DNA of 32,000 bases, from assembly GCA_048938295.1 (NCBI GenBank), contig JBHLMI010000004.1:60001-92000 (forward strand). The letters are read 5' to 3'. Under the pieces are notes generated by a model. That model made no database searches. It had not been told where the DNA came from and saw only the letters and a list, made by a program, of their open reading frames with translations. Positions 12,227 through 30,051 of this stretch are shown piece after piece. Every line of letters starts with the position of its first letter. Positions within the stretch are counted from its first letter, which is position 1. Both the position numbers and the translations under genes were made by a program. Source of the DNA: Promethearchaeota archaeon. Lineage in GTDB: Archaea; Asgardarchaeota; Hermodarchaeia; Hermodarchaeales; Hermodarchaeaceae.

Positions 12227-12298
12227 TCAGGTTTTTAAGCCATAACTCGACCCTAACATTCACTATTCTTTATCCACCCATTGCAAAGGTGTCCACTC

Positions 12299-13321
12299 AT
12301 GACAAAATCAGCAGTAAAGATGGGTCTTGTGAGTACCGGAGTTTACCTACCCAAGCATCGGCATACCGCCGCATATATCTCCGAACAGACTAGAATACCT
12401 GAAGACATCCTCAAAACGAAGTTCGGACTTACTAGTAAAACGGTAGGTGGCCCAGAGGATGGACCAGTCACTATGGGAATCCGGGCAGCCAACACTGCGT
12501 TACAGAAGACCAAGGAGATTTCTGCTGAGGATATTGATGTTGTGTTATGGACTGGCGAGACATTCATTGAACGACCAATGCAAGTCGCTGGAGTTAAACT
12601 CGCCTATGAGATTGGAGCTACGAATGCCTGGGCCTTGGATCTAAGCGCCCGGTGTGCGACGCTCATGGGCGGCATCCGGCTTGCAAAAGCCCTCATGGCG
12701 GCTGAATCCGATGTTCGTACGGTGCTCCTGGCAAGTGGCTACCAAAACTGTGATTTAATCAATTACAAAAACGAACGGAGTCGATTCATGTTTAGCCTGG
12801 CAGCAAGTGGTGTCGCAGCCCTCCTCCAACGCGATTACCCCCACAATCAGGTATTAGAAACCGCCATCATCACCGACGGTGCCTTTGCGGATGATGTGTA
12901 CTGTCCAGCCGGAGGAACGGAGATGCCTGTTACTTGTGAGGCTATTGAACAAGGATTACAATACCTCGATGTCCCGGATCCACCAAGCATGAAAGAAAGG
13001 CTAGATAAGCTGTCCATGCACAACTTCCTTCGTGTCGTCAAAGAAGCCACGGAACAAAGTGGTTATTCCATCGCGGATATCGATTATCTAGCCCTCCTCC
13101 ACATGAAGCGCTCCGCCTTTACCTATGTGCTCCAAGAACTCGGTTTGACGATGGCTCAGACAACCTACTTTGAAGAGTGGGGTCACATGGGACAAAATGA
13201 TGCAATTATCTCCATCGAAGAGGGATTGAAAACCGGAAAAATCAAAGCCGGTGATTTGGTAGTTCTGGCTGCTGCAGGGATTGGATATACATGGTCGGCG
13301 ACATCGATCAAATGGGGCTAG
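12299..13321 (+). CDS. 3-oxoacyl-ACP synthase III-like condensing enzyme (Cys-His-His variant)
   Basis: G.YLP N-terminus, catalytic Cys in SARCAT, His in ALLHMK, GHMGQND, GDLVVLAAAGIGYTW. ATG 12299 follows an AGGTGT RBS. Confidence 0.85.
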   Translation: MTKSAVKMGLVSTGVYLPKHRHTAAYISEQTRIPEDILKTKFGLTSKTVGGPEDGPVTMGIRAANTALQKTKEISAEDIDVVLWTGETFIERPMQVAGVKLAYEIGATNAWALDLSARCATLMGGIRLAKALMAAESDVRTVLLASGYQNCDLINYKNERSRFMFSLAASGVAALLQRDYPHNQVLETAIITDGAFADDVYCPAGGTEMPVTCEAIEQGLQYLDVPDPPSMKERLDKLSMHNFLRVVKEATEQSGYSIADIDYLALLHMKRSAFTYVLQELGLTMAQTTYFEEWGHMGQNDAIISIEEGLKTGKIKAGDLVVLAAAGIGYTWSATSIKWG

Positions 13322-13333
13322 CGGATAACGCCC

Positions 13334-13495
13334 CTACATCTGTTTCAGATGGCGTTCCAAACAGCTGAGTTGATGCTCAGCACCTTCAAGATTCCCCTCT
13401 GCAATAAATTTCCGAGCGGTGGTCACGTGTTTCAGGGCACAGCCCTTGAAATCGTTAGTATAATCACATTTCTGGCATTTGTCTTCTGACATCAT
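13334..13495 (-). CDS. 53-aa Cys/His-rich microprotein (not in the ORF track)
   Basis: MMSEDKCQKCDYTNDFKGCALKHVTTARKFIAEGNLEGAEHQLSCLERHLKQM*. AGGTGA RBS 5 nt upstream; stop lies 12 nt from the convergent neighbour's stop. Confidence 0.7.
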   Translation of the reverse strand: MMSEDKCQKCDYTNDFKGCALKHVTTARKFIAEGNLEGAEHQLSCLERHLKQM

Positions 13496-13637
13496 AGAAT
13501 TCACCTAGTCGTGCATGGAGCATAGATGTTCCTCTTATGCTTTATGCGTCTTCGGATTCTGATGGAGCGATTCCTACAAAGCAAAGAACACCAGAGTCCA
13601 TGGCGAAGGCATACAGCGTCGGAAAACACTTCAAGCC

Positions 13638-15551
13638 CTAGGCGGGCAGAACTCTGATTGAACAGACACCAGCAACCTGAACATGGAGTGCAACAAGTTG
13701 TGGATTATCAGTTTCTTCTAACGATAAATTAGGTGGATCCACTCGATAACCTTCAGGATAATGCAGATCAGGAATATAGAGGATGGTGGGTGCATCGATG
13801 TTGGGATTTGCATAGAATTCAAACTGGAAGACCTTCCGTTTCAACGAGAAAGACATGGACAATGGTGTACCAGCGACAGCAACAAAGTGAGGACGACAGA
13901 ACCCCTGTATCGCTCGCCCACCACTGTCAATGCCTGCTGGATCGGTTTGCTGGGAAGTACTAAAAATAGAGAAATCTTCCTGGTTCCACTGATCCCCCCA
14001 GGTGTTCTCATTATCAGCAGTGTAATTCCACAACATCGAATGGAGCAAGTTGGTATCCATGGCGGTATAATACATCGAGAGCGCCTTGATGTGGTTTTGC
14101 CAGGCCTTCTGTGGTTGCGTCTTCCATAGCCGAAAAGCCTCTCGGTTGTTAAGGTCAAAGCTGAGGCCAAATTCCCCAATGATTGTCGGAATCCCTCCAC
14201 GCACCTCACGGGATCGAGCTTGGATTTTGGCAAGTTGCCGGTTATACATCCTTTGCACATTACCAGTTCCAAGCACGAGTTTGTTGCGAGTTGTATCATA
14301 ACTTAACCAACCGCGAAAGCGTTTCATCCCCACCATGATCTCATCATACCAATGGGAGCCGCTCAGACTGTTCTCTGGTGGATTCCTGAAGAACGCTTCT
14401 CCTCGCATACCAGCTTCAGGAGGAGGCTGAATCCCTATCAATGTCTCAGGGCAGATGCTTCGAATCTCATCAGCAAACCTGTGGACAAAGGGGGACAAAA
14501 ACTGCTCCAGAAAATCCACAGGCGCACCCTTGTGAACTTGGAAAAAGTCTCTTTGCAGAATCACAGGTTCTCCATTTTGGTCAACCTCCCAGACCCCATG
14601 TTGCCGCCAGATAGGCTCGTGACCATCTAGCCAGCAGGAAATTCCATTGGGATTAAGAACCTCTCGGCGAACCTCTCGCACAGCGAAGCGCTTGATGAGA
14701 CTATAAGGGATTTCACGAGGGAAGCCTGAACCCAACGCCATAGCATCGAAGGGTTTGATGCCATAGAAGAGCTCACGGGAGATGGCAAAACCTGCACCTT
14801 CCACCCCTGTTCCAATCCAGCCCGGACTTGGTTCATTCATGACCTCGAAGCCGATCACAAATGGATTGTCACGAACACGGTTTGCCACCTGCTTGAGGGC
14901 AGCAATGTAGTGGTCTTGGAGATAGTCCTGAATTGGGACACCAGAAACCTTGCATAGGTGAGCGAATGCATTGCCACCAAAAAAGAGCGTGAACATGGTA
15001 CAGGTTGCAAGGCGCCCGTAGTTTTGAAGCCAAGACATTTGTGGGTAGGCATCTGGATCATTGGGATCATAGCGATTTTGCATCACGAACGCCGCGGCGG
15101 ACTCGTCGAATTTCGTAACATCAAGGCCGACCTTTTCAAAGGTCCATATTGGAGCCCCGTCGCCACCTGCAGCTCGACTCCACACATCCTGGTGCGGATC
15201 AATGAAAGAATAGAGTTGATGTTCTGCGGCGATTTTCAAGACCTCTTCAACGTAATCCAAATACTCCTTATCATAGCGTTTGGGACCAGAGTGTTCAATC
15301 GCTTCCCAGGTTACGATGAACCGAAGAGCATTGAAGCCCCAGTGCCGGATGCGACGGAAATGCGTTGTTGCATCTTTGAGTGGAAATGGGCGACCAATGA
15401 AAGAAACCTCATAATCAGTGAAATCAGTCTTGCGATGGGTGGCACCATCTGGTGTGAAAGGCACTTTGGAACTGCCTCCAAGGTTTACACCCCGAAGCAA
15501 AACCTTCCGCCCAGCCGAATCTCGAAACCACTCATTTTCGATGGTAAGCAT
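13638..15551 (-). CDS. GH5 endoglycoceramidase / steryl-glucosidase-like glycoside hydrolase (GH5_12-like) with a C-terminal beta domain
   Basis: RGVNLGGSSK.P, SFIGRPFPL, WGFNALRFIVTWEAIEH, HQDVWSR, acid/base MNEP, nucleophile IGEFG, WNYT. No signal peptide is apparent. Confidence 0.85.
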   Translation of the reverse strand: MLTIENEWFRDSAGRKVLLRGVNLGGSSKVPFTPDGATHRKTDFTDYEVSFIGRPFPLKDATTHFRRIRHWGFNALRFIVTWEAIEHSGPKRYDKEYLDYVEEVLKIAAEHQLYSFIDPHQDVWSRAAGGDGAPIWTFEKVGLDVTKFDESAAAFVMQNRYDPNDPDAYPQMSWLQNYGRLATCTMFTLFFGGNAFAHLCKVSGVPIQDYLQDHYIAALKQVANRVRDNPFVIGFEVMNEPSPGWIGTGVEGAGFAISRELFYGIKPFDAMALGSGFPREIPYSLIKRFAVREVRREVLNPNGISCWLDGHEPIWRQHGVWEVDQNGEPVILQRDFFQVHKGAPVDFLEQFLSPFVHRFADEIRSICPETLIGIQPPPEAGMRGEAFFRNPPENSLSGSHWYDEIMVGMKRFRGWLSYDTTRNKLVLGTGNVQRMYNRQLAKIQARSREVRGGIPTIIGEFGLSFDLNNREAFRLWKTQPQKAWQNHIKALSMYYTAMDTNLLHSMLWNYTADNENTWGDQWNQEDFSIFSTSQQTDPAGIDSGGRAIQGFCRPHFVAVAGTPLSMSFSLKRKVFQFEFYANPNIDAPTILYIPDLHYPEGYRVDPPNLSLEETDNPQLVALHVQVAGVCSIRVLPA

Positions 15552-15655
15552 CCAGATTAACCCCGTGTGTGTTCATTTCTTACCGATTGCCGGAATAAGT
15601 CTACTTTTTGTATAACTTACGTATTGCTAATTCAAAGTAACGGAGGTTCACCACA

Positions 15656-16141
15656 ATGACTAATTGGATTAGAACCGCCTTTGGCGATGCCCTCCACGGA
15701 AAAAACGCCCATTACGATGTCCTCAAAGCCCTCCGTGGCATCACAGCTGAAGACGCCCAAAAACGACCAGTCGCAAATGACCGATCCATTTGGCACCAGC
15801 TCTACCACATTGTCTTTTGGCACGATATCACCCTACAAGTGATTGAAGACAAAGACATTGATTGGAAAGCCATCCAAGACACAGACTGGCCAACTGATGA
15901 CACCAAACTCACCGAAAAGGGTTGGGAGGACCTCGTAGAAAGCTTTGAAAATCATGTTGTTCAGCTCAAAGAAATTGCTGAAAAGGCAGATTTGGATAAA
16001 ATCCTCAAAGGACTTGGAAACACGCCACTTGGACGCGGGATTATCATCGAATTCCAACACAACAGTTATCACATCGGGCAAATCGTCCTCCTCCGAAAGA
16101 TTTTGGGAATCTGGCCACCACCAGAAGACGAGAAAGCGTAA
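15656..16141 (+). CDS. DinB/YfiT-family metalloprotein
   Basis: SIWHQLYHIVFW and QHNSYHIGQI His motifs. GGAGGT RBS. Confidence 0.85.
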   Translation: MTNWIRTAFGDALHGKNAHYDVLKALRGITAEDAQKRPVANDRSIWHQLYHIVFWHDITLQVIEDKDIDWKAIQDTDWPTDDTKLTEKGWEDLVESFENHVVQLKEIAEKADLDKILKGLGNTPLGRGIIIEFQHNSYHIGQIVLLRKILGIWPPPEDEKA

Positions 16142-16392
16142 CCTAACCCAGTATCGTAAGTGGTGCTCACGCCCGACGAGGTGCGCTATAAGGCTGAAAG
16201 AAGAATAAGGGGTAGAGTAGACATTTCCTCCATAGGATCACGCCCCATATTCGTATAGCCTCATGACCGCCGCACTCTAACGGTAGCCCTCAAAATCCTC
16301 GTCTCAAATAACTGGAAAGATCTCTCCATGATGAGAGTGCTACTTGCCATTAGGAAAAGTCTTGAAAACCTGCAGTTCCTGACTGTAGAGGG

Positions 16393-17958
16393 TTAGTCTG
16401 CAAAGTCCACAGCTTGTTTTTCCAGCTTGCGTCGATTGATTTTTCCAGTGCTCGTTAATGGCAGTTCATGAAGGAAAATGACTCTCTTGGGAACTTTGTA
16501 TCGAGCTAATTTCGACCGCATATATTCTTTCAACGCCGCCTCAGAAATGTTTCTACCTTGCTTTATGACAACGAAGGCGACGGGAACTTCACCCCATTTT
16601 TCATCTGGCATCCCGACAACTGCCACAGCATCCACCATCTCATGGGTGTCCAACACTCGTTCAATTTCAACCGGAAAGATGTTCTCGCCACCACTGATAA
16701 TTAATTGCTTCTTTCGTCCCGTAATGAAGACCAAGCCCTCGTCGTCTTGCCGGGCAAGGTCACCGGTGTGCACCCACCCATCGGGTTCGATGGTCTCCTG
16801 GGTAGCCGTGGGATTATTCCAATAGCCACTGAACGCGTGTGGGCCACGGAGTAGGAGCTCTCCGACCTCTCCTTGGGGGAGCTCTTCGAGGTCTCCGTTA
16901 ACAATGCGAATTTCATTATGGAAGAAAGGTAACCCAACAGCCGTAGGTTTTTGTCTTGATACGCCTGGGGGCATGTAGAAGTTATTGGGACCCACCTCGG
17001 TGAGTCCATAGCCCATGGCGAACTCTTGGTCCCGTTTCCAGAAAGATTCCATGATTGAGACGGGACAGGGTGCGCCGCCACTGAGCCAGAAGCGTACTGA
17101 GCTGAAATCCGTCGCGTTGAACTCAGGGGTATTAATCATCATATGATACATAGTGGGCACGCCAATGATTATGGTGCACCGTTCCTCCTCGATTCGCCGC
17201 AGCGTGTCGATGGCATCGAATTTTTGCCATAGGAGAATCCGTGCACCCACATGGAAGAGAGGAATAAGGAGAACATTCCAGCCACCGGTGTGGAATAATG
17301 GGAAAATAACTGGGCTTACATCGGTTGGGCTGAGTCCCCAGTTAACGATGGTGTTGATGGAGTTCCAGAAGACGTGGCGGTGTGACAGAATGGCCCCCTT
17401 GGGGAGGCCAGTTGTACCGCCGGTGGGGAGGATGAAGAAGGGATCTTCAAACCGAATTACCGGACGTGGAGGTGGATTGGGAGATTGCTTCTTAAGAGTT
17501 TGACCATAGGATTGAGTATCCGAAAGCGTGGTCTTATCAACAGCGAAAAAGTGGGTGATGCTGGGGGTATTGGGGCGAATTTCTTCGATAACCTTGTCGA
17601 AGGTGCTTTCATGGATGAGAACCTTGGGTGTTACGTTGGCGATGTATTCCTTGTGTTCGGCAGCAGCTAAGCGGACATTCAGGGGGACAAGGATAGCGCC
17701 TAGTTTTCCACAGGCAGCGAAGGCATCGATGCATTCGACGCGGTTGTTGAGCATAAAGGCGACCCGATCACCCTGGTGGACACCAACTTTTCGAAGTTGA
17801 TTGGCAAGTTGGTTGCCCCGTTGGTTGAGTGCATCGTAGGTGTAGCGTCGATTGTTGTCAACGTCGAAGAGGGCTTCACGAGTGGGAGTGAGGGCTGCGC
17901 GTCGTCCGAGCCAGTCACCAATCCAGTGCCAGTCTTCAGGAGGTGAGATGTCCATCAT
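16393..17958 (-). CDS. Long-chain acyl-CoA synthetase / AMP-binding enzyme
   Basis: PTGGTTGLPKG P-loop, GYGLTE, HTGD, GRKKQLIISGGENIFP, GKI. AGGTGA RBS. Confidence 0.92.
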   Translation of the reverse strand: MMDISPPEDWHWIGDWLGRRAALTPTREALFDVDNNRRYTYDALNQRGNQLANQLRKVGVHQGDRVAFMLNNRVECIDAFAACGKLGAILVPLNVRLAAAEHKEYIANVTPKVLIHESTFDKVIEEIRPNTPSITHFFAVDKTTLSDTQSYGQTLKKQSPNPPPRPVIRFEDPFFILPTGGTTGLPKGAILSHRHVFWNSINTIVNWGLSPTDVSPVIFPLFHTGGWNVLLIPLFHVGARILLWQKFDAIDTLRRIEEERCTIIIGVPTMYHMMINTPEFNATDFSSVRFWLSGGAPCPVSIMESFWKRDQEFAMGYGLTEVGPNNFYMPPGVSRQKPTAVGLPFFHNEIRIVNGDLEELPQGEVGELLLRGPHAFSGYWNNPTATQETIEPDGWVHTGDLARQDDEGLVFITGRKKQLIISGGENIFPVEIERVLDTHEMVDAVAVVGMPDEKWGEVPVAFVVIKQGRNISEAALKEYMRSKLARYKVPKRVIFLHELPLTSTGKINRRKLEKQAVDFAD

Positions 17959-17992
17959 AATCCATCACCTAATCAGTCTGAACATTTCAAGA

Positions 17993-18772
17993 TTAGGTTC
18001 TTCCATCAATTCCGGCTAGAAAATCTAAAACGAGCTGATTAAATTCTTCAGGATTATCAACAGGCGTCATATGGGAGGTACTCTTCATCACCACGAATTT
18101 CGCATTTGGTATCCAGTCTTTCAATTGCTCTGCATGCCACATGGGAACAGTCTCATCTTTCTCTCCTTGAATAATGAGGGTGGGAGCTTGAATTTCCTTC
18201 AACTCATCCGCAATGTTAAATCCTGCAGTCGAGAGAATCGCTAACCGATAATCAGTTCGATTGACTCTACGAATCATTTCCCTTACATGGTTCTTAGCTT
18301 CATCCGAAGCCAAGCGAAGAATCTTTTTGGCGCCCCAGTTAGCAAACCAATTCATATCATGTTCAGAGATAAGGGTCAACCGGTCAGAGACCGCGTAATC
18401 AGCGATCATCGCGGCAGAATCTGCTAATACAAGTCCTTTGACTAGATGAGGGTATTTGATGGCTAAAACTTCGGCAACCATCCCACCCATCGAAAGGCCA
18501 CATACATAAGCTTGGGTAATTTTCAGCTGTTCTAAGAAATAATTCAAATCATCAGCATGAGAATGAACCCGATATTCTCTTTGAGGCTTCGAGGACTTGC
18601 CAAAGCCTTTCAAATCAACAGCAATCACATGATAATGCTTTGAGAAAGGGTCGAATTGGTATCGCCAACTTGTCAAGTCGCTTAATAACCCGTGGATTAA
18701 TAGGAGTGGAAAACCTTTGCCAGCTTCTTCATAATAAAGCGTAATTTCCTCGTTGATTTTAACTTCAGGCAT
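17993..18772 (-). CDS. Alpha/beta hydrolase (enol-lactonase-like)
   Basis: LIHG oxyanion motif, DLKGFGKS, nucleophile elbow GLSMGG, catalytic Asp region GEKD, His in SHMTP. Confidence 0.92.
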   Translation of the reverse strand: MPEVKINEEITLYYEEAGKGFPLLLIHGLLSDLTSWRYQFDPFSKHYHVIAVDLKGFGKSSKPQREYRVHSHADDLNYFLEQLKITQAYVCGLSMGGMVAEVLAIKYPHLVKGLVLADSAAMIADYAVSDRLTLISEHDMNWFANWGAKKILRLASDEAKNHVREMIRRVNRTDYRLAILSTAGFNIADELKEIQAPTLIIQGEKDETVPMWHAEQLKDWIPNAKFVVMKSTSHMTPVDNPEEFNQLVLDFLAGIDGRT

Positions 18773-18883
18773 GAAAACGCCTCAGAGACTGTGTTGTAGG
18801 CTAAATGGGGGTGTTCCATTCATGCTTATATATCTTAAGCGTAGGAAGGAGTCATTACAACCTCGCAAACGAGAGTTGATCAT

Positions 18884-20122
18884 ATGGAAAAAGATGAATC
18901 CTTAGAAAAACAGATGTGGCGTCCAGTTATTACAGAGCGTCGATGGAATTGGATTGTATCAGGCCTAATCAATTTCATCATAGTGTTCATAGTAGCCCTG
19001 GTACTCTGGTTTGTCTTCATGGACTGGCGATTCTCCATCTTTTACTGGTCTGGATGGCTGTTTCTAGGGTCAGCGATTGCTGGATGGGGAATACTTGTTG
19101 TTGTCCTCCAAATCTGGTTCGATTATTACTTATCTTCGAAGATGAAGGGGTTATTGACTCAAGGTATAGTAGGTTCTCTACTGAATTTCGTGGGTGTTGC
19201 ACTCATAATCCTCTGTTTCTGGTTCATTGTGGGTCCGTATATGATTCCGATGTTCAGCCCCTATGCATTGATGAACGTTACTTCGATTGGAGGTGACTGG
19301 TGGCTCGCGCTTTTTCTGTCATCTGCTGCAATCGGAACAATCCTCTCCTGTGGTTTCAGCTTTGCATCAATTTGGGCTGCTGGAGGCATATATTGGCCAT
19401 TCACAGAGCTAAAACAACCAAAGCGTGGTTTTGCAGTCATGTTAATGGGAGTAGTAATCACTACCATAGCATGGCTCTTTCTTTACTGGCCTTTTCAGAT
19501 TGCAACCTCTCTACCCCCTACTACGACAACAGTTAATTGGACCATTTGGACCGCCTGGCCTTTCTGGGCATTTGATCCTATTGCAGGAGAGGTCAATAAT
19601 GGTGGCGCATATCTTTCCCTAGCGATAACGCAATGGATTATCATGTTTGGTTTACTTAGCCTCATGACTTGGGAGTATCAGCCATGGAAATTATTCAGGA
19701 AACAACCCTGGATTGGCTTAGCTGCACTGATTGGTTGCACACTCCTTGGTTGTCTCTTCGCTCTGGTAATCATGCCCTTTCTACTGTCAGGAATATTAGT
19801 AACCATGGGCTTTGCTGCCATGCATGGCTATTCTGCTTGGATTGCGGTGTTCCTTATCCTCAACGTCTTCATCTGGACTCAATACTTTGGTAACTGGCCA
19901 ACCCACTTCAATACAGGTGTGAACATTATAATTCGAACAATCCTTGTCGTTCTCTTTGGTGTAATCAGTCTGTTTGCCTACTTCTTCGTCTCACCAATCC
20001 TATTAGGAGACCTATTGCTCACTGGAATATACAATCCTGTCAATTGGGTACTTTGGCTGCTCTGGTTCATGTTACTTCACGTCTACATCTGGAAACGTGC
20101 TCCAGGCTGGAGAAGCGTTTAG
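18884..20122 (+). CDS. Uncharacterised polytopic membrane protein (about 10-11 TM), probable transporter
   Basis: Trp-rich hydrophobic 412-aa ORF with internally repeated (W/Q)P...KQP..G loops. No MFS or ABC motifs. Confidence 0.7.
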   Translation: MEKDESLEKQMWRPVITERRWNWIVSGLINFIIVFIVALVLWFVFMDWRFSIFYWSGWLFLGSAIAGWGILVVVLQIWFDYYLSSKMKGLLTQGIVGSLLNFVGVALIILCFWFIVGPYMIPMFSPYALMNVTSIGGDWWLALFLSSAAIGTILSCGFSFASIWAAGGIYWPFTELKQPKRGFAVMLMGVVITTIAWLFLYWPFQIATSLPPTTTTVNWTIWTAWPFWAFDPIAGEVNNGGAYLSLAITQWIIMFGLLSLMTWEYQPWKLFRKQPWIGLAALIGCTLLGCLFALVIMPFLLSGILVTMGFAAMHGYSAWIAVFLILNVFIWTQYFGNWPTHFNTGVNIIIRTILVVLFGVISLFAYFFVSPILLGDLLLTGIYNPVNWVLWLLWFMLLHVYIWKRAPGWRSV

Positions 20123-21620: not shown

Positions 21621-23051
21621 CTAAAGGGAAAGAAGATATTGATGGATGTTACGGGCAGCGATTTTTCCTTCACCAGCTGCTGCAATGACTGTGCCTTCAC
21701 CACCGGTGATATCACCGGCAGCCCAGACATGAGGGATGGAGGTTTCGAGGGATTCGGGGTCAACGATGACATCACCCCAGCGATCACATTCTAATCCAGG
21801 TGTACAGCGTGGAACTGAGGGATTAGCACTTGCGCCAATGGCAAAAATAACGGTATCAATGGCCATTTCAAATTCAGAGCCTTCAATGGGTTCGGGAGCA
21901 CAACGTCCACTTTCATCGGGTTCACCAAGGCAATTGCGCAGACAAGTCATGGCTTTGATGTGTCCTTGATCGTCGCCATGTATTTCAATGGGTTGCGTGA
22001 GGAATTGGAATTTGACCCCTTCTTCTTTGGCGTGATGATATTCCTCTTGGCGGACCGGCATTTCATTTTCGGACCGTCGATAAACAATAGTTACCTTCGA
22101 AGCGCCTAAGCGGAGTGCGGTCCTAGCACTGTCCATGGCTGCGTTCCCACCACCTATAACTGCGACAACTTTCCCATGGATTATCGGAGTATCAAATTCA
22201 GGAAATTGGTAGGCACGCATCAGATTTACGCGGGTGAGGAACTCATTGCTACTATAACTGCCGACCAAATTGACTCCCGGAATTTGGAGGAATCGAGGGA
22301 GGCCTGCCCCCGAGGCAAGAAGAATTGCGTTGTAACCCTGTTCGAACAGATCTTCAAAGGTGTATAATTGCCCGATGAATGCATCCAAGTGAAATTCGAC
22401 ACCCAGTTGTTTCAGGTAGTTTACTTCGGCTTTAACAATCATTTTGGGGAGTCGAAACTCAGGAATCCCATAGACTAGGACACCTCCTGGTTCATGGAGA
22501 CTTTCAAAGACTGTGACTTGATGACCGAGGAGTGCTAAGTCCCCAGCAGCCGTGAGACCTGCTGGCCCGCTGCCAACAATCGCTATCCGGTGACCGCTTG
22601 GTTTTGGGAGTGGAGGTAACTCAACACCATTGTCGCGCTCCCAGTCGGCTAAAAAGCGCTCAATTCGACCGATTTCAATAGCATGCCCTTTCTTGCTCAA
22701 AATACAGCCTTCTTGGCATTGGATTTCTTGCGGACAGACGCGCCCACAGATAGCGGGAAGACTGTTCTTTTCCTTAATGATGAGAATTGCTTTTCGATAA
22801 TCACGATTGCGAACGGCTTCTAGGAATCGATTGATTTCGATTTCGACAGGACAGGCACTAACACATTTCGGGTTTTTACAGGCCATGCAGCGTTCAGCTT
22901 CTTGTAGAACCTGCTCTTCGGTATATCCCAAATTAACCTCATCAAAATTTGTTATTCGAATCTTTGGATCCTGTTCTGGCATCTCAGGTGGTTCGATTAG
23001 CCAAGGACGCGGAAGCTCAGGTGTTTTTTGTTTGTTGTTGGGAGGTGTCAT
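21621..23051 (-). CDS. sudA: NfnAB/SudAB large subunit (GltD-like NADPH-dependent Fe-S flavoprotein)
   Basis: RITNFDEV, EAERCMACKNPKCVSACP, CGRVCPQEIQC, GSGPAG, YGIPEFRLP, GGGNAAMD, AAGD. Confidence 0.92.
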   Translation of the reverse strand: MTPPNNKQKTPELPRPWLIEPPEMPEQDPKIRITNFDEVNLGYTEEQVLQEAERCMACKNPKCVSACPVEIEINRFLEAVRNRDYRKAILIIKEKNSLPAICGRVCPQEIQCQEGCILSKKGHAIEIGRIERFLADWERDNGVELPPLPKPSGHRIAIVGSGPAGLTAAGDLALLGHQVTVFESLHEPGGVLVYGIPEFRLPKMIVKAEVNYLKQLGVEFHLDAFIGQLYTFEDLFEQGYNAILLASGAGLPRFLQIPGVNLVGSYSSNEFLTRVNLMRAYQFPEFDTPIIHGKVVAVIGGGNAAMDSARTALRLGASKVTIVYRRSENEMPVRQEEYHHAKEEGVKFQFLTQPIEIHGDDQGHIKAMTCLRNCLGEPDESGRCAPEPIEGSEFEMAIDTVIFAIGASANPSVPRCTPGLECDRWGDVIVDPESLETSIPHVWAAGDITGGEGTVIAAAGEGKIAARNIHQYLLSL

Positions 23052-23149
23052 ATCTAACCCTTCAGTGTGAGAGCTAGTTATCGGGAGGGCACTTATTACA
23101 GAATTAAAGCCTTCCGCATTTCAGTAAATGCTAGGCGCAGGAAACAGTC

Positions 23150-24997
23150 CTAGTCCTTCCAAAGATCCTGTTTCACATCTTCTAAACCAAGTCTAGCGAG
23201 AAGAGCGGGACTGGGTTTACCGGTGGTAGGGTCCCATTGACTAAATTGGTAAAATGCGTCCAGTTGGTGTTCAACATTCGGAGCCTTGCCTTCGTTTGAT
23301 CCACTTGCATGTGGTCTAAGCAGTGCTGGAGGAAGCGCATCATCGGTTGCTGTAATTCCACATCGGATATTAAAGGCACGTTTCAGCGTCATGGTTCGCT
23401 CCCCTATTTCATATAACTGCTCTATAGTGGTGTCCCTGCCGGTAGCAGCCCGATAAAGGGGAAGTAATGTTGAGGGTTGTACTATAGCAAGTTGACAGAC
23501 AATAAGGGAGTTTAGCACTGTTTTCCAATTCCGGAGTTTAGCCATCAAAGTCCCCCTGCCTTCATCACTATGACGATCAAGGGGTTCAATGTCAAATTCA
23601 TCAATTGTAACGCCCATGTCTACAGAAAGCCCTTCACCCTGCATATGATTAGCACCACATGGAGAGACTGCATAGGTTAACGCTAAACCAAAGAATGCCC
23701 GCGGATCATGCATGGGCACTTCAAGCCCTTTCACATGAACAGCAAGTTCAGGAACTCCAAATTCATTGGCTGCGTGTCTTACCCCTTCAGCAAGAACTGC
23801 ACCAAGTCCCTCGCGCTTGGCAATCAACTCGATAAGCTGAATAATGACATGTGGATCACCAAACTGGAGATTCAGAGAACCAACTAAATCCTTCGGAATT
23901 TTACCTTTTTCATGTGCAGCTAGACTAAAGGCTATGACGTTCCCACAAGAAATCGTATCAAGCCCATACAAATCACAAAGATGATTGGCCTTACATAATA
24001 AGGCTAAATCATCAGTTTGGCAAAGGGTTCCAAGCGAAGCTATGGATTCATATTCAGGACCAAGCACATCTTTCAATGAGACAATGTCTGTTTCCACTGT
24101 GATTATTGGTCCACAACCAATTGGACAAATATGGCACCGAAACTGACCTGAACGGTATTCTGAAAGAGCTTTCGCGTTGATTTTTTCAACATTCATCGAA
24201 GGTTTAGAAAAATAGCGAACGGGCATATCGTTAAACACGTTCATGAGAAGATCAACGGAGTAGGCAGTCCCATTATCACCAAGGATGGGTATGAAGGCTT
24301 TCAGAATCTCGGTTAGCATTTTGGACTGTTCACGGAAGACTTCTGGATCAGCCAATACTGGAGTCTGTGTTCCCTTAACCGCAATTGCTTTGAGATGTTT
24401 TGAACCCCAAACAGCCCCAGCACCAGCACGAGCACTGGCACGTCCCAAATCATTCATCACTGCTGCAAACCGAACCTGGTTTTCTCCGGCAGGACCGATA
24501 GAAAGAACACGTAATTTGGTCTCGTTTGCATCTGCTTTGAGGATTCTTTCAGTTTCAGTGGTGTCCTTACCCCAGAGGTGGTCAGCTGGTTTTATCTGAA
24601 CCTCATCATCTGAAATTTTCAAATATACCGGTTTGGCTGATGACCCAGTGATGAGGATGCCATCTAGTCCAGCGTGACGGAGTTCTGCACCGAAATATCC
24701 CCCACCCGTTGATTCCCCCCAGATACCTGTTAATGCGGATTTTGTACAAATTGCATGCCGACCGGTGCATGGTGCTCCAGTCGCTGTAAGGGGACCGGTA
24801 AAGATGGCAACTTCATTATCAGGGTGTAGAGGATTAAGGGTTTCAACAGCTAATCGATCATACAGTAAACGAGCGGCATAACCTGCACCACCGATGAAAT
24901 CACGGGCATAATCCCAGTTGAGAGATTTTCGTTGAGTGGTTCCTTTGGTCAAATCAACAAAGAGAAACTCACCCATATACCCAGAGATCGGTGACAT
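23150..24997 (-). CDS. aor: Tungsten-dependent aldehyde:ferredoxin oxidoreductase family protein
   Basis: IGGAG, KSALTG.WGES.GG, SIGPAGEN, RAGAGAVWGSKHLKAI, CHICPIGC, GPEYE, GLDTIS, HVKGLE.PMHDPR. Confidence 0.92.
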   Translation of the reverse strand: MSPISGYMGEFLFVDLTKGTTQRKSLNWDYARDFIGGAGYAARLLYDRLAVETLNPLHPDNEVAIFTGPLTATGAPCTGRHAICTKSALTGIWGESTGGGYFGAELRHAGLDGILITGSSAKPVYLKISDDEVQIKPADHLWGKDTTETERILKADANETKLRVLSIGPAGENQVRFAAVMNDLGRASARAGAGAVWGSKHLKAIAVKGTQTPVLADPEVFREQSKMLTEILKAFIPILGDNGTAYSVDLLMNVFNDMPVRYFSKPSMNVEKINAKALSEYRSGQFRCHICPIGCGPIITVETDIVSLKDVLGPEYESIASLGTLCQTDDLALLCKANHLCDLYGLDTISCGNVIAFSLAAHEKGKIPKDLVGSLNLQFGDPHVIIQLIELIAKREGLGAVLAEGVRHAANEFGVPELAVHVKGLEVPMHDPRAFFGLALTYAVSPCGANHMQGEGLSVDMGVTIDEFDIEPLDRHSDEGRGTLMAKLRNWKTVLNSLIVCQLAIVQPSTLLPLYRAATGRDTTIEQLYEIGERTMTLKRAFNIRCGITATDDALPPALLRPHASGSNEGKAPNVEHQLDAFYQFSQWDPTTGKPSPALLARLGLEDVKQDLWKD

Positions 24998-25001
24998 CTC
25001 A

Positions 25002-25676
25002 TCACCGTTTTTTCATCCGCTTCATGAGCTCAAACATCTGAGTTTGCGTTTCGATAGCATCAGGTGGAATTGTTGTCAGGTGCTTTTTACCCCCCGCAGC
25101 TGCACAAGCCAATAGGTAAATGTGGGCAACCCGTTCAAGTAATAAGGCATTATGCAGTGCGATGTCTAAGGTGGGTCCACAGCATAAGGCTCCATGATTG
25201 GCAAGGAACACGGCATTCTGTGATCCGAGGGCTTTGACGACGTTCTCAGCCAACTCTTCGCTTCCAGGCATGCCATAATCGGCAACTTCAACTTGGCCTC
25301 CTAGTCGTATGACAAATTCATCGACGAGGGGCGGTAATGGTTCATGAAGAACGGCTAAGGCCGAAGCATAGATACAGTGAGTATGCACAATTGCATTGAC
25401 ATCGGGTCTCGCCTTGTAGATGGCTAGATGAAGAGGATGTTCGATGGAGGGATTCCGATCGCCTTCAACGATGTTCCCTTCCATGTCAATGATCATTACA
25501 TCGTCGGCACTCATGCAGGAGTAGTCAACACTACTTGGTGTGATGGCGACATACTCGGTACCTTCAATTCGGTAGCTAGCATTGCCTGAGCTGCCGAGGA
25601 CTAGCTCTGCTGACTGCATGCTCTGACAGGTGTGGAGCACTTGATTTTTCGCATCCTGTGTGTTATCGGGTGTCAT
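25002..25676 (-). CDS. Class II aldolase/adducin family (FucA-like)
   Basis: SGNAS, ITPS, PSIE (catalytic Glu), VHTH and NHG zinc ligands. Confidence 0.92.
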   Translation of the reverse strand: MTPDNTQDAKNQVLHTCQSMQSAELVLGSSGNASYRIEGTEYVAITPSSVDYSCMSADDVMIIDMEGNIVEGDRNPSIEHPLHLAIYKARPDVNAIVHTHCIYASALAVLHEPLPPLVDEFVIRLGGQVEVADYGMPGSEELAENVVKALGSQNAVFLANHGALCCGPTLDIALHNALLLERVAHIYLLACAAAGGKKHLTTIPPDAIETQTQMFELMKRMKKR

Positions 25677-25706
25677 ATCAATCCACCTACCATATGGAGC
25701 GTGTAA

Positions 25707-27236
25707 TCATAAATTTGCAGATTGGTTGTATAAGGTATGCCATCTTGTAAAATAGGTTTTGTACTGATTGTGGACATCTTCGCGTGGCATCAGTTCCGGT
25801 TGCATTTTCACCATCTGACCCATGGCATCAGTCAGTGACGCATGTAAGTCAGCTGCAGTTGCGGCGCAAATTGCAGCACCCAAACTTGAGGCTTCAACAA
25901 CGTGTCCCGTTCTGATCTTCAGACCTGTTACGTCTGCGAGCATTTGTCTAAAGAACAGGCTGCGGGATAGTCCTCCGGTAACAACACAATGCTCGAACAA
26001 AACATCAGCCAACTCCTGAATACGTTCCAGATTCATTCGAGCAGCATAGCTGATGTTCTCAAAGAGCGCACGTGTGAGTTCTTTGATTGTAATCGGTGTC
26101 ACCACCGGAGAAGTCGGAGGAGGAAAGATAAAGATCGAAGGACGCACGGTTGTCATGTCACTCGCATCCATGATTTGAGGACCAAGTAACGCAATGGTAT
26201 CAAAGGCACCTACGGGCGCTTGACTGGCCAACTGCTCGGTATAAGTATAAGCCTGATCCGTTGATCCTTCAAATTTAGGATGCATAGGACCCACAATGTT
26301 TTGGACAAACCAATTTAGAACCGAACCATTGGGTCCGGAATTTGCCTCAAGCACCCATTTGTGCGGAAGCAGAAATCGCCCAGTCCACAACCGATTATCG
26401 GGATCAATAATTGGCTCAGCGGTGACAAGTTGTACCGGACCAGTGTTGCCTGAAACTACCCCAACTTCCCCTGGGTACGCAGCTGATGATCCTAATAAGG
26501 CGCATTGAGTATCAGCTCCGCCAACACCAACAATTGTAGACTTTGATAAACCAGTACTTTTGCTGGCTTGGGCTGTGACATTTCCAACGACTGTGCCTGG
26601 TTCAGAAATCTTTGGCAAGAAGTCACCGGAGAGTTCAGCCATTTCTAGGATTTCTGGTGACCATTTACTGGACTGGATATCCATGAGCTGGGTATTTGAC
26701 GCCTGAGTCGGATCAGTTGTTGCTTGTCCTGTGAGTTGGTAGACAATCCAGTCACTAATGGATAGTACGTGCTCGATCCTGTAAAACTCCTCAGGTCGCT
26801 CTTTCTTATACCATAGCAGCCGACACAAGGAGTAAAGCAAAGGAGGCCAACAACCTGTCGGAGGACACGATTCCTCCAAACCTTTCATCACCGAATCTTG
26901 CATGAAGACGCCACGCGCATCCAGATTAGGACCCGCATAGATAGCCGCACCTTTTTTGTCAAGGAATACAGCGCCATGCCGTTGACTCGTTGCTCCAATA
27001 GCTATGATGTCAGTGGGTTCAGATTTTGCCAATTTGAGGACAAAAGGAATCATTGTGCAGATAGTCTGCCATACAGCTTTAGCATTAAATTCCTTCCCGA
27101 TTCCAAAAAGCCCTTCTGTGTCAACATATTGAATTGGAGTAAACTGTCTGGCGAGTACAGTCCCTTCCGGTGAAAAAACCATACATTTGATACCGGATGT
27201 CCCAAAATCAATGGTAAGAAACTGTTGCTTGGGCAT
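25707..27236 (-). CDS. FGGY-family carbohydrate kinase, LsrK (autoinducer-2 kinase)-like
   Basis: IDFGTSG, TSQRHG, NLDAR, RLLW, ISDW, GGADTQ, TGGLSRS, EASSLGAA. Confidence 0.88.
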   Translation of the reverse strand: MPKQQFLTIDFGTSGIKCMVFSPEGTVLARQFTPIQYVDTEGLFGIGKEFNAKAVWQTICTMIPFVLKLAKSEPTDIIAIGATSQRHGAVFLDKKGAAIYAGPNLDARGVFMQDSVMKGLEESCPPTGCWPPLLYSLCRLLWYKKERPEEFYRIEHVLSISDWIVYQLTGQATTDPTQASNTQLMDIQSSKWSPEILEMAELSGDFLPKISEPGTVVGNVTAQASKSTGLSKSTIVGVGGADTQCALLGSSAAYPGEVGVVSGNTGPVQLVTAEPIIDPDNRLWTGRFLLPHKWVLEANSGPNGSVLNWFVQNIVGPMHPKFEGSTDQAYTYTEQLASQAPVGAFDTIALLGPQIMDASDMTTVRPSIFIFPPPTSPVVTPITIKELTRALFENISYAARMNLERIQELADVLFEHCVVTGGLSRSLFFRQMLADVTGLKIRTGHVVEASSLGAAICAATAADLHASLTDAMGQMVKMQPELMPREDVHNQYKTYFTRWHTLYNQSANL

Positions 27237-27245
27237 GCCAACCTC

Positions 27246-28253
27246 TCATGATGATGGTTTCAGTACTTCTGGGTTGGCTAAGTATTTGGGCGTTTCTCCT
27301 TTCAGGAACCGGTCAATATCTTTCGCTAGAATCATGGATTGCCGATAAACAACGTCTTGAGTGTTACCTCCAATGTGAGGTGTTACCGTGACGTTATCAA
27401 ACTGTAAGAACCGATTATCTGATCCTACAGGCTCCCGAGAGTGCACATCCAACCCCGCACCAGCGATTGTTCGTGATTGAATGGCTTCGAAGAGCGCATC
27501 TTCATCAATGATTGCAGATCGAGCTGTATTGATTAAATGGGCTGAGGGTTTCATCCAGGAGAGTTGCTCTTTACCAATCATTCGAAAGGTTTCGGGTGTC
27601 GCCCGGGTGTGAAGAGTCACAAAATCAGACTCGCGCATGAGAGGCTCTAATTCCACCTTCTCCGCATTCACTTTCTTCCCTTGGTTTGCATCAACATGAG
27701 GATCATAAAAAATGACACGTGTACCAAATCCCTGTAGCCTCTTAGCCACTCGCCGACCGATTTGCCCTAATCCGATAATGCCAACAGTGCTTCGTCCGAG
27801 CTCTTGGCCTTTGAGTGAATCATAAAGTTGGGTAAAGCCTTCAGCACTGTCAATCATGATCTTTCCTGATGTTAGAATGCGGTCTGCGGTGATTAATTTC
27901 CGCGCTTGAGCGAGTATAAGGAGGATCGTCAAGTCAGCAACTGAATCAGCATTTCGTCCTGGAGCATAGAAAACGGGGACACCATGAGCTGTGGCTGACT
28001 CAATGTCTACTTCTTTAGGATTATCCCTAGCACTTCCAATAAATTTCAGCGACAATCCTTCAAAGACTTCGTCAGTTACTGCATCTGCCTCAACAATGGC
28101 GGCATCTGCTCTGACAGCTTTGAGTCTTTGCAAGAGGTCTTCACCCCAGTAAACGTGACCGCTAGTTCGCCAATCTTCATGGAGGATCGTTCCATGTTCG
28201 CGAAGTATTTTGAGCCCCTCTTCATGGAATGAGGCACTAATGAATATACGCAT
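27246..28253 (-). CDS. D-isomer-specific 2-hydroxyacid dehydrogenase family protein
   Basis: PGRNADSVAD, GIIGLGQIG NAD-binding motif, INTAR, DVHSREP, TPHIGG. ATG 28253 (the track uses TTG 28265). Confidence 0.9.
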   Translation of the reverse strand: MRIFISASFHEEGLKILREHGTILHEDWRTSGHVYWGEDLLQRLKAVRADAAIVEADAVTDEVFEGLSLKFIGSARDNPKEVDIESATAHGVPVFYAPGRNADSVADLTILLILAQARKLITADRILTSGKIMIDSAEGFTQLYDSLKGQELGRSTVGIIGLGQIGRRVAKRLQGFGTRVIFYDPHVDANQGKKVNAEKVELEPLMRESDFVTLHTRATPETFRMIGKEQLSWMKPSAHLINTARSAIIDEDALFEAIQSRTIAGAGLDVHSREPVGSDNRFLQFDNVTVTPHIGGNTQDVVYRQSMILAKDIDRFLKGETPKYLANPEVLKPSS

Positions 28254-28282
28254 GCGCCTTCCCAATTCCTTCTGTATTAGGG

Positions 28283-28618
28283 TTACATAAGGATTTGGAG
28301 TTTCAGGAGATCCGTCATACTCCCCTTCGTTTTTAGTTTGCCGACAGAATACGCATCAAGGGGACTTAGGCCGCCTCGCATGATGCCGACAAGCGTTCCA
28401 CTATCCGTAGTCACCAGAAGGTTTGGCTTTTCTACTTCTCCCTCAGCAAAGGGGTCCATGACGCCATCATGAATACGGGTGTGGAAACTCATTTCAAGAT
28501 CAGTAAACTGAAATTGTAGTGTTCGGTCGAAGCCTTCAAACTTGGATTTGGTATCCGGAGCGTCAAATTTCTCGCGTACACCTTGAAGAACTTGCTTGAC
28601 CTCTTCTTTCGTTGCCAT
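28283..28618 (-). CDS. SCP2 sterol/lipid-binding domain protein
   Basis: 111 aa with the G.LSPLDAY..GKLKTKGSM.DLLKL C-terminal SCP2 signature. AGGTGT RBS. Confidence 0.85.
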   Translation of the reverse strand: MATKEEVKQVLQGVREKFDAPDTKSKFEGFDRTLQFQFTDLEMSFHTRIHDGVMDPFAEGEVEKPNLLVTTDSGTLVGIMRGGLSPLDAYSVGKLKTKGSMTDLLKLQILM

Positions 28619-28708
28619 AAGAAAAACACCTAGTGGACATTGAATTTACAAAGGTGGATAAAAACGCACTCCCTATTCAGTATTGATAAGCATATCTTCA
28701 AGCTTTGT

Positions 28709-29068
28709 TTAGCCAGGGAGAACAGGAATAAGAATCAAACCGATTAATCCAATTACGAGAAGCAAAACGCCAGTGACTAGAATCACCAAACCGCCCCGAG
28801 ATTGGTCACTGCGACGCTCTGAATAGTGTCGAACTGTATCTCGAGTGACTTGTGGGTTCACAGCATATCGGCCCAATGCTAAAGCCTCAAAGATAGGTGT
28901 TTGCAGACAGGCACCGAAAAGGAGCATAATAACGCCAAAGAAGAGAGCAACTATCGAAAATCCGTAAAGGGTCAGAACTTGGTAAACTAGGAAGGAAATG
29001 ACTATCACCAAGGCTAAACAAATAACCATCGAGATTGCTAATCTTTTCCCAAATGAGATCCAATCCAT
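28709..29068 (-). CDS. Small 3-TM membrane protein of unknown function
   Basis: Three hydrophobic segments. GAGGTT RBS 5 nt before ATG 29068. Confidence 0.75.
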   Translation of the reverse strand: MDWISFGKRLAISMVICLALVIVISFLVYQVLTLYGFSIVALFFGVIMLLFGACLQTPIFEALALGRYAVNPQVTRDTVRHYSERRSDQSRGGLVILVTGVLLLVIGLIGLILIPVLPG

Positions 29069-29159
29069 CACTGAACCTCAAGCTATGAAGGACAATTCAA
29101 GGTTAAAAAGTCACGGTGCACTGAATTGTTGTGAAATTAAGGTATTTTGAGATGCAATA

Positions 29160-29996
29160 TCAATGGTGACCGCACTTATGTTTGTATGCTTCTCGAGCAC
29201 GGGTTTCTTGGTCCTTGTAAGTATCTAGTCGAGTAATCAGCAAATTAAAATTAACTTCGTGGGCATTGAACTCTGGACCATCCACACAAGCGAACCTCAT
29301 GTCTCCACCAATATCCACTCGGCATGCCCCACACATACCTGTCCCGTCAACCATAATTGGATTGAGGCTACATTCGGTTTTGACTCCAAAGGGTTTAGTC
29401 GTTTCAGCTACGAATTTCATCATGATTGGCGGTCCGACGGTAAAGACATAATCGATTTTGCGAGCGGATTCAAGCAATTCCTTAAGCTTTGTGGTTACAA
29501 ATCCTTTCGTACCCTTAGAACCATCATCAGTGGTTATGTACAATTCATCACTGATTTGATTGAGTTCAAGTTCACAAACTAGTAGATCATCCTGACGAGC
29601 CCCAAGTATAGTAATAAGGTAATTTCCTGCTTCTTTGATTTGACGAGCCCTTGGAAGGGCAGGTGCAGCCCCACAGCCACCAGCTACCACCACGGCAGTT
29701 CCATAATGTTCTACGGTGGGAGCATGCCCCAAAGGACCGAGAATGTCCATGATAGCGTCACCTGGTTTTAGTTTGGCTAACTCCATCGTGGATTTGCCGA
29801 CCACTTGGAAGACAATGGTTACGGATCCTTTTTCGCTATCCCAATCTTTGAGGGTAAGGGGGATGCGTTCACCCTGATCATGTAATCGTAGAATTAAGAA
29901 TTGCCCTGGCCGGGCTTTAGCCGCGATATCCAATGCTTCTAAATCGAATTCGAAGATATCAGGGGCGATTTTCCGAGTCGCTAACACCTTGAACAT
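29160..29996 (-). CDS. sudB: NfnAB/SudAB small subunit (FAD/NAD-binding, [2Fe-2S])
   Basis: PGQFLILR, GERIPLT, GPLG, AGGCG, VGPPIMM, NPIMVDGTGMCGACRV and ACVDGPEF. ATG 29996 follows a GGAGTT RBS. Confidence 0.92.
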   Translation of the reverse strand: MFKVLATRKIAPDIFEFDLEALDIAAKARPGQFLILRLHDQGERIPLTLKDWDSEKGSVTIVFQVVGKSTMELAKLKPGDAIMDILGPLGHAPTVEHYGTAVVVAGGCGAAPALPRARQIKEAGNYLITILGARQDDLLVCELELNQISDELYITTDDGSKGTKGFVTTKLKELLESARKIDYVFTVGPPIMMKFVAETTKPFGVKTECSLNPIMVDGTGMCGACRVDIGGDMRFACVDGPEFNAHEVNFNLLITRLDTYKDQETRAREAYKHKCGHH

Positions 29997-30051
29997 GTAT
30001 ATAACTCCTTTATTTGGGACAGGGTTCAAGTTGGCGGGAGACTAGCAACTG

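Follow-up and report, generated by a model that had tools for sequence, protein, structure and literature searches.

A conserved Asgard archaeal operon encoding an LsrK-sister FGGY kinase, a class II aldolase, and a predicted tungsten-type aldehyde:ferredoxin oxidoreductase, and a candidate pathway for cleavage of a polyol- or ketose-like head group

Several described catabolic routes combine a kinase with a class II aldolase that releases dihydroxyacetone phosphate (DHAP). In L-fucose and L-rhamnose catabolism (FucK-FucA-FucO/AldA and RhaB-RhaD), an FGGY kinase and a zinc class II aldolase produce DHAP and an aldehyde, which is then oxidized or reduced by a dedicated enzyme. In the DHAP shunt and in 5-deoxyribose disposal (MtnP or MtnK-MtnA-Ald2; DrdK-DrdI-DrdA), a phosphorylase or a non-FGGY kinase acts together with an isomerase, no dehydrogenase takes part, and a class II aldolase splits a 5-substituted pentulose-1-phosphate into DHAP and the aldehyde bearing the substituent. 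In erythritol (EryA-EryB) and glycerol (GlpK-GlpD) catabolism, an FGGY kinase is followed by a dehydrogenase acting on the carbinol beside the phosphate ester. Here, we analyzed a 32,000-nucleotide stretch of a Promethearchaeota archaeon (Asgardarchaeota; Hermodarchaeaceae; positions 60,001 to 92,000 of contig JBHLMI010000004.1, assembly GCA_048938295.1; hereafter, the window), which carries a five-gene operon that is a variant of these kinase/class II aldolase DHAP routes. No published description of the function of its kinase subfamily or of the pathway was found, and the 2011 paper on the FGGY family did not treat this subfamily. New in the present study are the archaeal, unfused form of the pathway, a tungsten-type aldehyde:ferredoxin oxidoreductase (AOR) as the fifth gene, a comparison of aldehyde-handling partners across lineages, a promoter analysis, and the insertion of the genes into an nfnAB operon.

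The five genes are located on the minus strand and encode, in order of transcription, an SCP2-fold lipid-carrier protein (28283..28618; 111 aa), an NAD-type member of the D-2-hydroxyacid dehydrogenase (2-Hacid_dh) family (27246..28265), an FGGY kinase (25707..27236; 509 aa), a zinc, DHAP-type class II aldolase (25002..25676; 224 aa), and a predicted tungsten-type AOR sensu stricto (23150..24997; 615 aa). The most likely start of the dehydrogenase is the ATG at 28253, which gives a length of 335 aa, as in its homologues. The initial annotation had described five co-oriented genes with gaps of 4-30 nt and a ribosome-binding site each, and all of these open reading frames (ORFs) were recovered. 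The intergenic gaps from SCP2 to AOR are 29 (or 17), 9, 30, and 4 nt, and a GGTG/GAGG-type ribosome-binding site lies 8-12 nt before the start codon in all five genes. Pfam E-values over the five proteins ranged from 3.8e-07 (SCP2) to 2.6e-106 (AOR). On the same strand, the block is preceded by nfnA and a 120-aa ORF and followed by nfnB, and the gaps involving the nfn genes and this ORF measure 88-98 nt. The operon promoter (28658..28680) consists of CTGAAT (28680-28675), a 10-nt G-rich spacer, and the TATA-like element TTTTTAT (28664-28658), which lies ~45 nt before the SCP2 ATG. In an alignment of the sequences preceding the genes in up to 13 related loci, this element, already pointed out in the initial annotation, coincided with a GTTTTTAAC box conserved in 13 of 13 loci. 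Conserved TATA-like boxes also precede nfnA, the small ORF, and nfnB; no internal one was found from SCP2 to AOR. We regard the operon as real and conserved, and from its anatomy and conservation we infer that the five genes are co-transcribed.

Conservation of the five-gene order across archaea had been suggested as a check, and the order nfnA-(small ORF)-SCP2-dehydrogenase-kinase-aldolase-AOR-nfnB was kept in 16 related loci of the organism's own family, whose kinases are 59-90% identical; missing genes resulted mostly from contig ends, and AOR was absent from one locus. This conservation is well beyond chance. The kinase was present in 16 of the 18 genomes of the family. The metagenome-assembled genomes (MAGs) with kinase homologues in this identity range are named Hermod-, Prometh-, Thor-, Odin-, and Hodarchaeota, and all were placed in that one family. 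Among sampled Asgard genomes, the kinase subfamily was found in 96 of 301. A second Asgard clade (labelled Thorarchaeota) carries SCP2-dehydrogenase-kinase-aldolase-AOR immediately downstream of a group 3b NiFe hydrogenase with four subunits, and two of its loci (L029 and L035) have an additional SCP2 gene after the module on the opposite strand. Jord-, Frey-, Baldr-, and Helarchaeota carry dehydrogenase-kinase-aldolase only. In a set of 82 archaeal and bacterial loci, the dehydrogenase and kinase are neighbors in 75, and an aldolase occurs in 47; the respective counts for the 66 bacterial loci, which come from Binatia, Chloroflexota, Myxococcota, Bacillota, Actinomycetota, and others, are 60 and 31. 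Kinase and dehydrogenase are fused in three proteins (P0101, P0104, and P0109). In Mycobacterium, the kinase, dehydrogenase, SCP2, and aldolase, corresponding to four of the five operon genes, are encoded in a single frame of 1285-1292 aa (1291 aa in one case), and the operon SCP2 protein is homologous to the SCP2 domain of this four-domain fusion. A possible correspondence of Rv0727c-Rv0729 of M. tuberculosis to the trio was considered but dropped, as a literature search returned nothing on it. SCP2 itself was found in the two Asgard clades, one euryarchaeal MAG, and the actinobacterial fusions. The adjacency, the kinase-dehydrogenase fusions, and the mycobacterial four-domain protein support a functional linkage of the genes. 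The core of the module is not specific to archaea; it is widespread in bacteria and fused there, and the Asgard operon represents this widespread pathway in archaeal, unfused form. With five separate genes and a tungsten AOR, nested in the only close nfnAB pair of the genome and sharing a promoter motif with nfnB, the Asgard version provides a clean test case.

The aldolase matched Aldolase_II of Pfam (3.4e-53). The best NCBIfam models were those of ribulose-1-phosphate aldolase (154.9 bits; cut-off, 300) and FucA (151.5 bits; cut-off, 264); lower scores were obtained with OtnC (118 bits; cut-off, 250), AraD-type models (94-102 bits), and MtnB (74 bits), and no cut-off was passed with any of these models. 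As in fucose catabolism, the zinc ligands and the catalytic glutamate are in place: His98, His100, His161, and Glu79 align with His92, His94, His155, and Glu73 of FucA, while the epimerase AraD has Asp at the column of Glu79. Asn32, Ser77, and Thr46/Ser48 align with the phosphate site of FucA (Asn29, Ser71/72, and Thr43), with PSIE in place of PSSE (Ser to Ile). The gene is present in a single copy and is the sole member of the class II aldolase family found in the genome by tblastn. The dehydrogenase matched PF02826 (2-Hacid_dh_C; 3.3e-55) and PF00389 (6.6e-14), and its translation contains the NAD fingerprint GLGQIG...FYD and the Arg/Glu/His triad (NTAR, REP, and PHIGG). Its best NCBIfam models, glyoxylate reductase and phosphoglycerate dehydrogenase, both scored below the cut-off. 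Among solved structures, glyoxylate reductases and a phosphoglycerate dehydrogenase come closest to it, and its PDB relatives include 2-ketogluconate reductase.

The AOR matched AFOR_N (3.4e-71) and AFOR_C (2.6e-106) and aligned over its full length with Pyrococcus furiosus AOR (1aor; 375 bits), including CxxCxxxC and the fourth Cys for the 4Fe-4S cluster and GPEYES. The 2.5-Mb genome has nine AOR-family genes; AOR/FGGY genes are located on contigs C4, C8, C17, C33, C38, and C61, with two AORs close together on C61. A single recruitment of AOR was not supported, as the cluster AORs of the two Asgard clades group with one unlinked paralogue of this genome without a clear branching order. The SCP2 protein matched the Pfam families SCP2 (3.8e-07) and Alkyl_sulf_C (8.3e-07). 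Its AlphaFold model (pLDDT 90.4) was matched by Foldseek with a probability of 1.00 and a TM score of 0.70-0.75 to the SCP2 protein AF1534 and to alkylsulfatase SCP2 domains, and every solved SCP2 relative that was retrieved is described as a carrier of lipids or alkyl chains.

The kinase belongs to the FGGY family by its PF00370 (FGGY_N; 1.7e-42) and PF02782 (FGGY_C; 6.7e-17) domains, and its GADT and DxGT motifs, including D242 and T243, are invariant in an alignment of 17 family sequences. Judged by their conserved residues, the kinase, dehydrogenase, aldolase, and AOR look active. The best NCBIfam model was LsrK (NF008187) at 282.9 bits, against a cut-off of 528, followed by XylB at 207.5 bits. 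Because a XylB-like paralogue in the same genome reaches 310 bits on the LsrK model, this score alone says little. In the PDB, LsrK (5ya0) scored 202 bits vs 111 for XylB. We also built a tree of the dehydrogenase-linked kinases together with the eight FGGY kinases from Escherichia coli and the remaining five from this genome (six in all, only one of which passes the XylB cut-off). The dehydrogenase-linked kinases formed one clade (SH-aLRT, 96), sister to E. coli LsrK (91), which was the one LsrK sequence in the tree; the operon kinase lies outside the FucK/RhaB branch of fucose and rhamnose catabolism. These results agree with the initial annotation, which had placed the kinase nearer to LsrK than to xylulose or glycerol kinases. 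The kinase does not qualify as an LsrK orthologue, given its score and the absence of a detected lsr context.

LsrK- and XylB-type kinases act on a terminal CH2OH beside a CHOH. In the pathway we propose, the kinase would phosphorylate a polyol- or ketose-like head group at its terminal CH2OH, and the NAD-dependent 2-Hacid_dh enzyme would oxidize the neighboring carbinol to a ketone, giving a ketose-1-phosphate-type end. The zinc aldolase would then release DHAP and an aldehyde three carbons shorter than the substrate, and the tungsten AOR would oxidize this aldehyde to the acid with reduction of ferredoxin. Each turnover would yield one NADH from the dehydrogenase and one reduced ferredoxin from AOR, both taken up by the flanking NfnAB. 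We consider a pathway of phosphorylation, oxidation, and aldol cleavage followed by AOR oxidation to have a probability of roughly 0.5, a reading drawn from sequence, a structural model, and gene context.

The initial annotation had placed substrate oxidation before phosphorylation. LsrK-type chemistry and the EryA-EryB and GlpK-GlpD precedents make kinase, dehydrogenase, and aldolase the likely order instead. We infer that the kinase acts before the dehydrogenase because its product needs carbinol oxidation to become a substrate of a DHAP aldolase, and this requirement would account for the dehydrogenase being the constant partner and fusion mate of the kinase. The precedents differ in that their dehydrogenases are FAD enzymes rather than 2-Hacid_dh members and no aldol cleavage follows. 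Compared with fucose and rhamnose catabolism, the operon has a 2-Hacid_dh enzyme in place of an isomerase, and an SCP2 protein and a tungsten AOR are included in the set. Compared with the DHAP shunt, it uses an FGGY kinase and a dehydrogenase, without an isomerase.

The partner that handles the aldehyde varies by lineage while the core is constant: AOR in Asgard archaea and Pelolinea, an aldehyde dehydrogenase in Mycobacterium, and an iron-containing alcohol dehydrogenase (Fe-ADH) in Darwinibacter. In Mycobacterium, the aldehyde dehydrogenase gene lies directly after the fusion, and an AMP-binding (acyl-CoA-ligase-like) gene lies upstream. Since three different aldehyde-handling enzymes are exchanged around an unchanged core, an aldehyde is probably what the aldolase releases. 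Together with the catalytic residues described above, this backs the initial suggestion of aldol cleavage to DHAP and an aldehyde that is subsequently oxidized.

The flanking genes encode the subunits of an NfnAB (NADH-dependent ferredoxin:NADP oxidoreductase)-like enzyme, and both pass the cut-offs of the respective NCBIfam subunit families. Upstream is the NfnA/SudB-like small subunit (29160..30029, minus strand; NF004862, 391 bits; cut-off, 220), and downstream is the NfnB/GltD-like large subunit (21621..23051, minus strand; TIGR01316, 541 bits; cut-off, 471.75). They are the only close nfnA/nfnB pair in the genome. In other Asgard families, 11 of 13 loci have nfnA immediately before nfnB, whereas in the family of this organism AOR directly precedes nfnB in 14 of 17 loci, and nfnA and nfnB are split by the six-gene block (the small ORF and the operon) in every locus with enough sequence (loci L098-L127 compared). 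These arrangements indicate that the block was inserted into an nfnAB operon, and the insertion has been retained while the kinases of the family diverged to 59% identity. The nfn genes had at first been regarded as lying outside the unit; the block is in fact nested between them.

The nfnB gene has its own promoter (23104..23124, minus strand; CTGAAA, 10 nt, TTTAATT), which is kept in 13 loci and matches the operon promoter in layout, so that both share CTGAAW, a ~10-nt G-rich spacer, and a TATA box (CTGAAW-N10-TTTWW). The CTGAAT element is conserved at both the SCP2 and nfnB promoters across related genomes, and CTGAAW may be a site for a regulator common to the operon and nfnB. The extended motif matched twice in the 2.5-Mb genome, at these two promoters, against an estimated ~2 hits expected by chance. 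As the pattern was derived from the same two promoters, the scan indicates only the lack of a wider regulon. A scan for sigma-70 promoters and terminators gave no enrichment and is uninformative for an archaeon. The input of the Nfn reaction is one NADH and one reduced ferredoxin. Functional coupling of the operon to Nfn is plausible because this ratio matches the proposed output and because the promoter motif is common to nfnB. The nesting between nfnA and nfnB, and the group 3b hydrogenase that precedes the module in the second Asgard clade, are in line with such a link.

As for the substrate, the presence of an SCP2 protein in the pathway makes it probable that the substrate or the aldehyde product is hydrophobic. 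The AMP-binding ligase near the mycobacterial fusion also fits such a substrate. A further indication came from Chloroflexota, in which HpnC/D/E-like genes and the gene of a small HMGR_N protein flank the dehydrogenase-kinase-aldolase trio, with HpnH and squalene-hopene cyclase (SHC) just upstream; HpnH and SHC are next to the trio in two Chloroflexota genomes. In some Dehalococcoidia, the trio follows polyprenyl synthase and squalene/phytoene synthase genes and precedes a nucleoside hydrolase gene. SCP2 and this isoprenoid-cluster context point to a hydrophobic, possibly isoprenoid, substrate, probably a lipid or isoprenoid tail bearing a polyol head, rather than the simple deoxy-sugar considered initially. 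In the frame of the DHAP shunt, the link to SCP2 would be consistent with a hydrophobic 5-substituent such as that of ribosylhopane. In individual loci of Chloroflexota (L068 and L039) and Dehalococcoidia (L073-L082), the trio was observed within HpnH-SHC-UPF0047-HpnC/D/E clusters. The protein after the trio is a stand-alone HMG-CoA reductase N-terminal domain of 121 aa, which takes the place that SCP2 has in the Asgard and actinobacterial versions.

The operon, like the fused enzyme of bacteria, might, more specifically, belong to an undescribed pathway that harvests the polyol tails of membrane lipids, either bacteriohopanepolyols from the sediment or an archaeal polyol lipid. DHAP and a shortened lipid aldehyde would be formed, the aldehyde would be oxidized to an acid (e.g., C32 hopanoic acid), and NADH and reduced ferredoxin would enter NfnAB. 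We advance this version tentatively and regard it as doubtful. If it is true, it would be the first enzymology for a lipid-biomarker transformation that is usually held to be diagenetic. A lipid polyol as substrate would in any case imply a new type of lipid head-group catabolism, with a bearing on hopanoid biomarker geochemistry and on the carbon and redox balance of sediment archaea. Endogenous hopanoids as the Asgard substrate were rejected: in the Asgard genome, the best HpnH match was 42.8 bits (cut-off, 225), and the SHC domain gave a single, partial match of 27.2 bits in a 353-aa frame. Neither HpnH above the cut-off nor a full-length cyclase was found in Mycobacterium ostraviense or in one Dehalococcoidia genome, and endogenous hopanoids are therefore not the general substrate.

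Several points speak against the proposed pathway. The hopanoid lead from Chloroflexota cannot be transferred directly to the Asgard genome. The column of FucA Tyr113, the second acid/base of that enzyme, holds Asp in the operon aldolase, within a (V/I/L)DE motif conserved in Asgard archaea and Chloroflexota. Members of the 2-Hacid_dh family normally require a carboxylate beside the carbinol, and oxidation of a polyol phosphate would be a novelty among them. AOR-type enzymes are also able to catalyze acid reduction. The nesting might reflect a neutral insertion, as separate promoters precede nfnA and nfnB. No transporter, hydrolase, or lipid gene was found within the five-gene operon. Finally, basal members of the kinase clade (Pelolinea and Darwinibacter) share operons that lack SCP2 with CUT2 sugar ABC transporters and regulators of the GntR or SorC type, which suggests that the kinase family also handles soluble substrates. 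The operons of Darwinibacter (L059) and the cultured Pelolinea submarina (L053) additionally contain amidohydrolases, DUF1152, and an Fe-ADH or AOR-like gene.

These basal operons, with their sugar transporters, regulators, and Fe-ADH, favor the strongest rival, namely that the operon degrades or salvages a small, soluble sugar. This compound, which may be a pentitol, a tetritol, 5-deoxyribose or methylthioribose (as a variant of the DHAP shunt), or a fucose- or rhamnose-like ketose, would be phosphorylated, oxidized, and split into DHAP and glycolaldehyde, acetaldehyde, or lactaldehyde. AOR would oxidize the aldehyde, and SCP2 would be accessory or structural. The two best aldolase models, for ribulose-1-phosphate aldolase and FucA, fit this route, as does the frequent nucleoside hydrolase neighbor in Dehalococcoidia. 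The genome also has three IF-2B (MtnA-like) and five PNP_UDP_1 (MTAP-like) genes, together with which its only class II aldolase could serve a DHAP shunt. On the other hand, SCP2 is conserved in the operon and fused in Actinomycetota, and its retrieved solved relatives are, by description, lipid or alkyl-chain carriers. The operon lacks a transporter and an isomerase, and tblastn with E. coli queries found no FucI, RhaA, XylA, or AraA in the genome. To our knowledge, the DHAP shunt requires no FGGY kinase and no dehydrogenase, both of which the operon supplies. We take this route to be possible but rather unlikely, and the remaining alternatives, in which the operon acts in the biosynthetic direction, on acid sugars, or on autoinducer-2 (AI-2), are all less likely than it.

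AOR enzymes are reversible, and aldolases favor condensation. In the biosynthetic direction, AOR would use reduced ferredoxin to turn a lipid acid into the aldehyde, the aldolase would add DHAP, and the dehydrogenase would reduce the ketone, building a polyol-phosphate head on the lipid. The trio does lie inside biosynthetic hopanoid/squalene clusters in Chloroflexota, and the nearby Nfn or group 3b hydrogenase could supply reductant. The kinase would be superfluous, as DHAP brings the phosphate, yet it shows the highest conservation of all members and occurs fused to the dehydrogenase. In addition, the mycobacterial fusion is paired with an acyl-CoA-ligase-like gene and an aldehyde dehydrogenase of the NAD(P)-type family, which works oxidatively. 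Synthesis thus seems very unlikely. The family of the dehydrogenase, whose members normally use 2-hydroxy acids, and its 2-ketogluconate reductase relative would suit a tetronate-type acid-sugar route. Such pathways run through LtnD/DenD-OtnI-OtnK-OtnC, with a beta-hydroxyacid dehydrogenase as LtnD/DenD. In the operon, AOR would convert an aldose to an aldonic acid, the dehydrogenase would act on the 2-hydroxyl, the kinase would act at the far end, and an OtnC-like decarboxylase of the aldolase fold would release DHAP and CO2. The published pathways, including the Ltn3D variant (PMC12994016), follow a similar logic of a dehydrogenase, a kinase, and a class II aldolase-fold enzyme leading to DHAP, but with other enzyme families: DUF1537 is cited as the family of acid-sugar kinases, the dehydrogenase is a short-chain dehydrogenase/reductase, decarboxylation comes last, and the article contains no mention of FGGY (PMC12994016). 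The OtnC match of the operon aldolase and an Amidohydro_2 (lactonase-type) gene in the Pelolinea operon count for this route. However, the 118 bits of OtnC are below the aldolase models (~150) and far under its 250-bit cut-off, the downstream aldehyde dehydrogenase and Fe-ADH of other lineages fit release of an aldehyde and not of CO2, and SCP2 is left unexplained. It therefore carries very little probability.

The least probable of the readings is processing of AI-2/DPD without uptake. Here, the kinase would yield P-DPD, and after isomerization the dehydrogenase would reduce one keto group to form a 5-deoxypentulose-1-phosphate, which the aldolase would split into DHAP and acetaldehyde for oxidation to acetate by AOR. 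LsrK is the closest characterized kinase by hidden Markov model, PDB search, and tree, and LsrR-like (Sugar-bind), SorC-type regulators and Lsr-like CUT2 transporters occur near some bacterial relatives. The operon kinase, however, is only ~33-35% identical to LsrK, remains far under the equivalog cut-off at 283 bits while the XylB-like paralogue scores higher, and belongs to a distinct clade. LsrF, LsrG, LsrR, and LsrB were not found by tblastn with the E. coli proteins, nor was LuxS detected, in this 91.6%-complete genome, and cleavage in the operon would be by a class II aldolase and not by the thiolase-type LsrF. AI-2 consumption would also leave SCP2 and the link to hopanoid clusters unexplained, and the initial proposal that the archaeon consumes this bacterial signal is accordingly weak. 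Automatic pipelines label these proteins as AI-2 kinase, which counts for that proposal, and metagenome surveys have counted quorum-sensing genes in Asgard MAGs (bioRxiv 10.1101/2024.11.15.623595). Our results suggest that AI-2 labels, at least for the kinase subfamily studied here, mark a metabolic enzyme and not signaling.

Between nfnA and SCP2, the small ORF (28709..29071, minus strand) encodes a membrane protein of 120 aa with three predicted hydrophobic spans. It had no Pfam or NCBIfam match. Copies with 50-64% identity were found in 10 related loci, and it is absent from one (L001); the protein could link the pathway to the membrane. Downstream of nfnB, positions 10832-20122 of the window contain two MgtE-like genes, a 412-aa ORF without a family, an alpha/beta hydrolase, an AMP-binding ligase, a DinB protein, a GH5 hydrolase, a KAS III-like gene, and MFS transporters. 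A tie of the hydrolase and ligase to the operon, through CoA activation of the acid product, is conceivable. The position of the alpha/beta hydrolase and the AMP-binding ligase is kept in L001.

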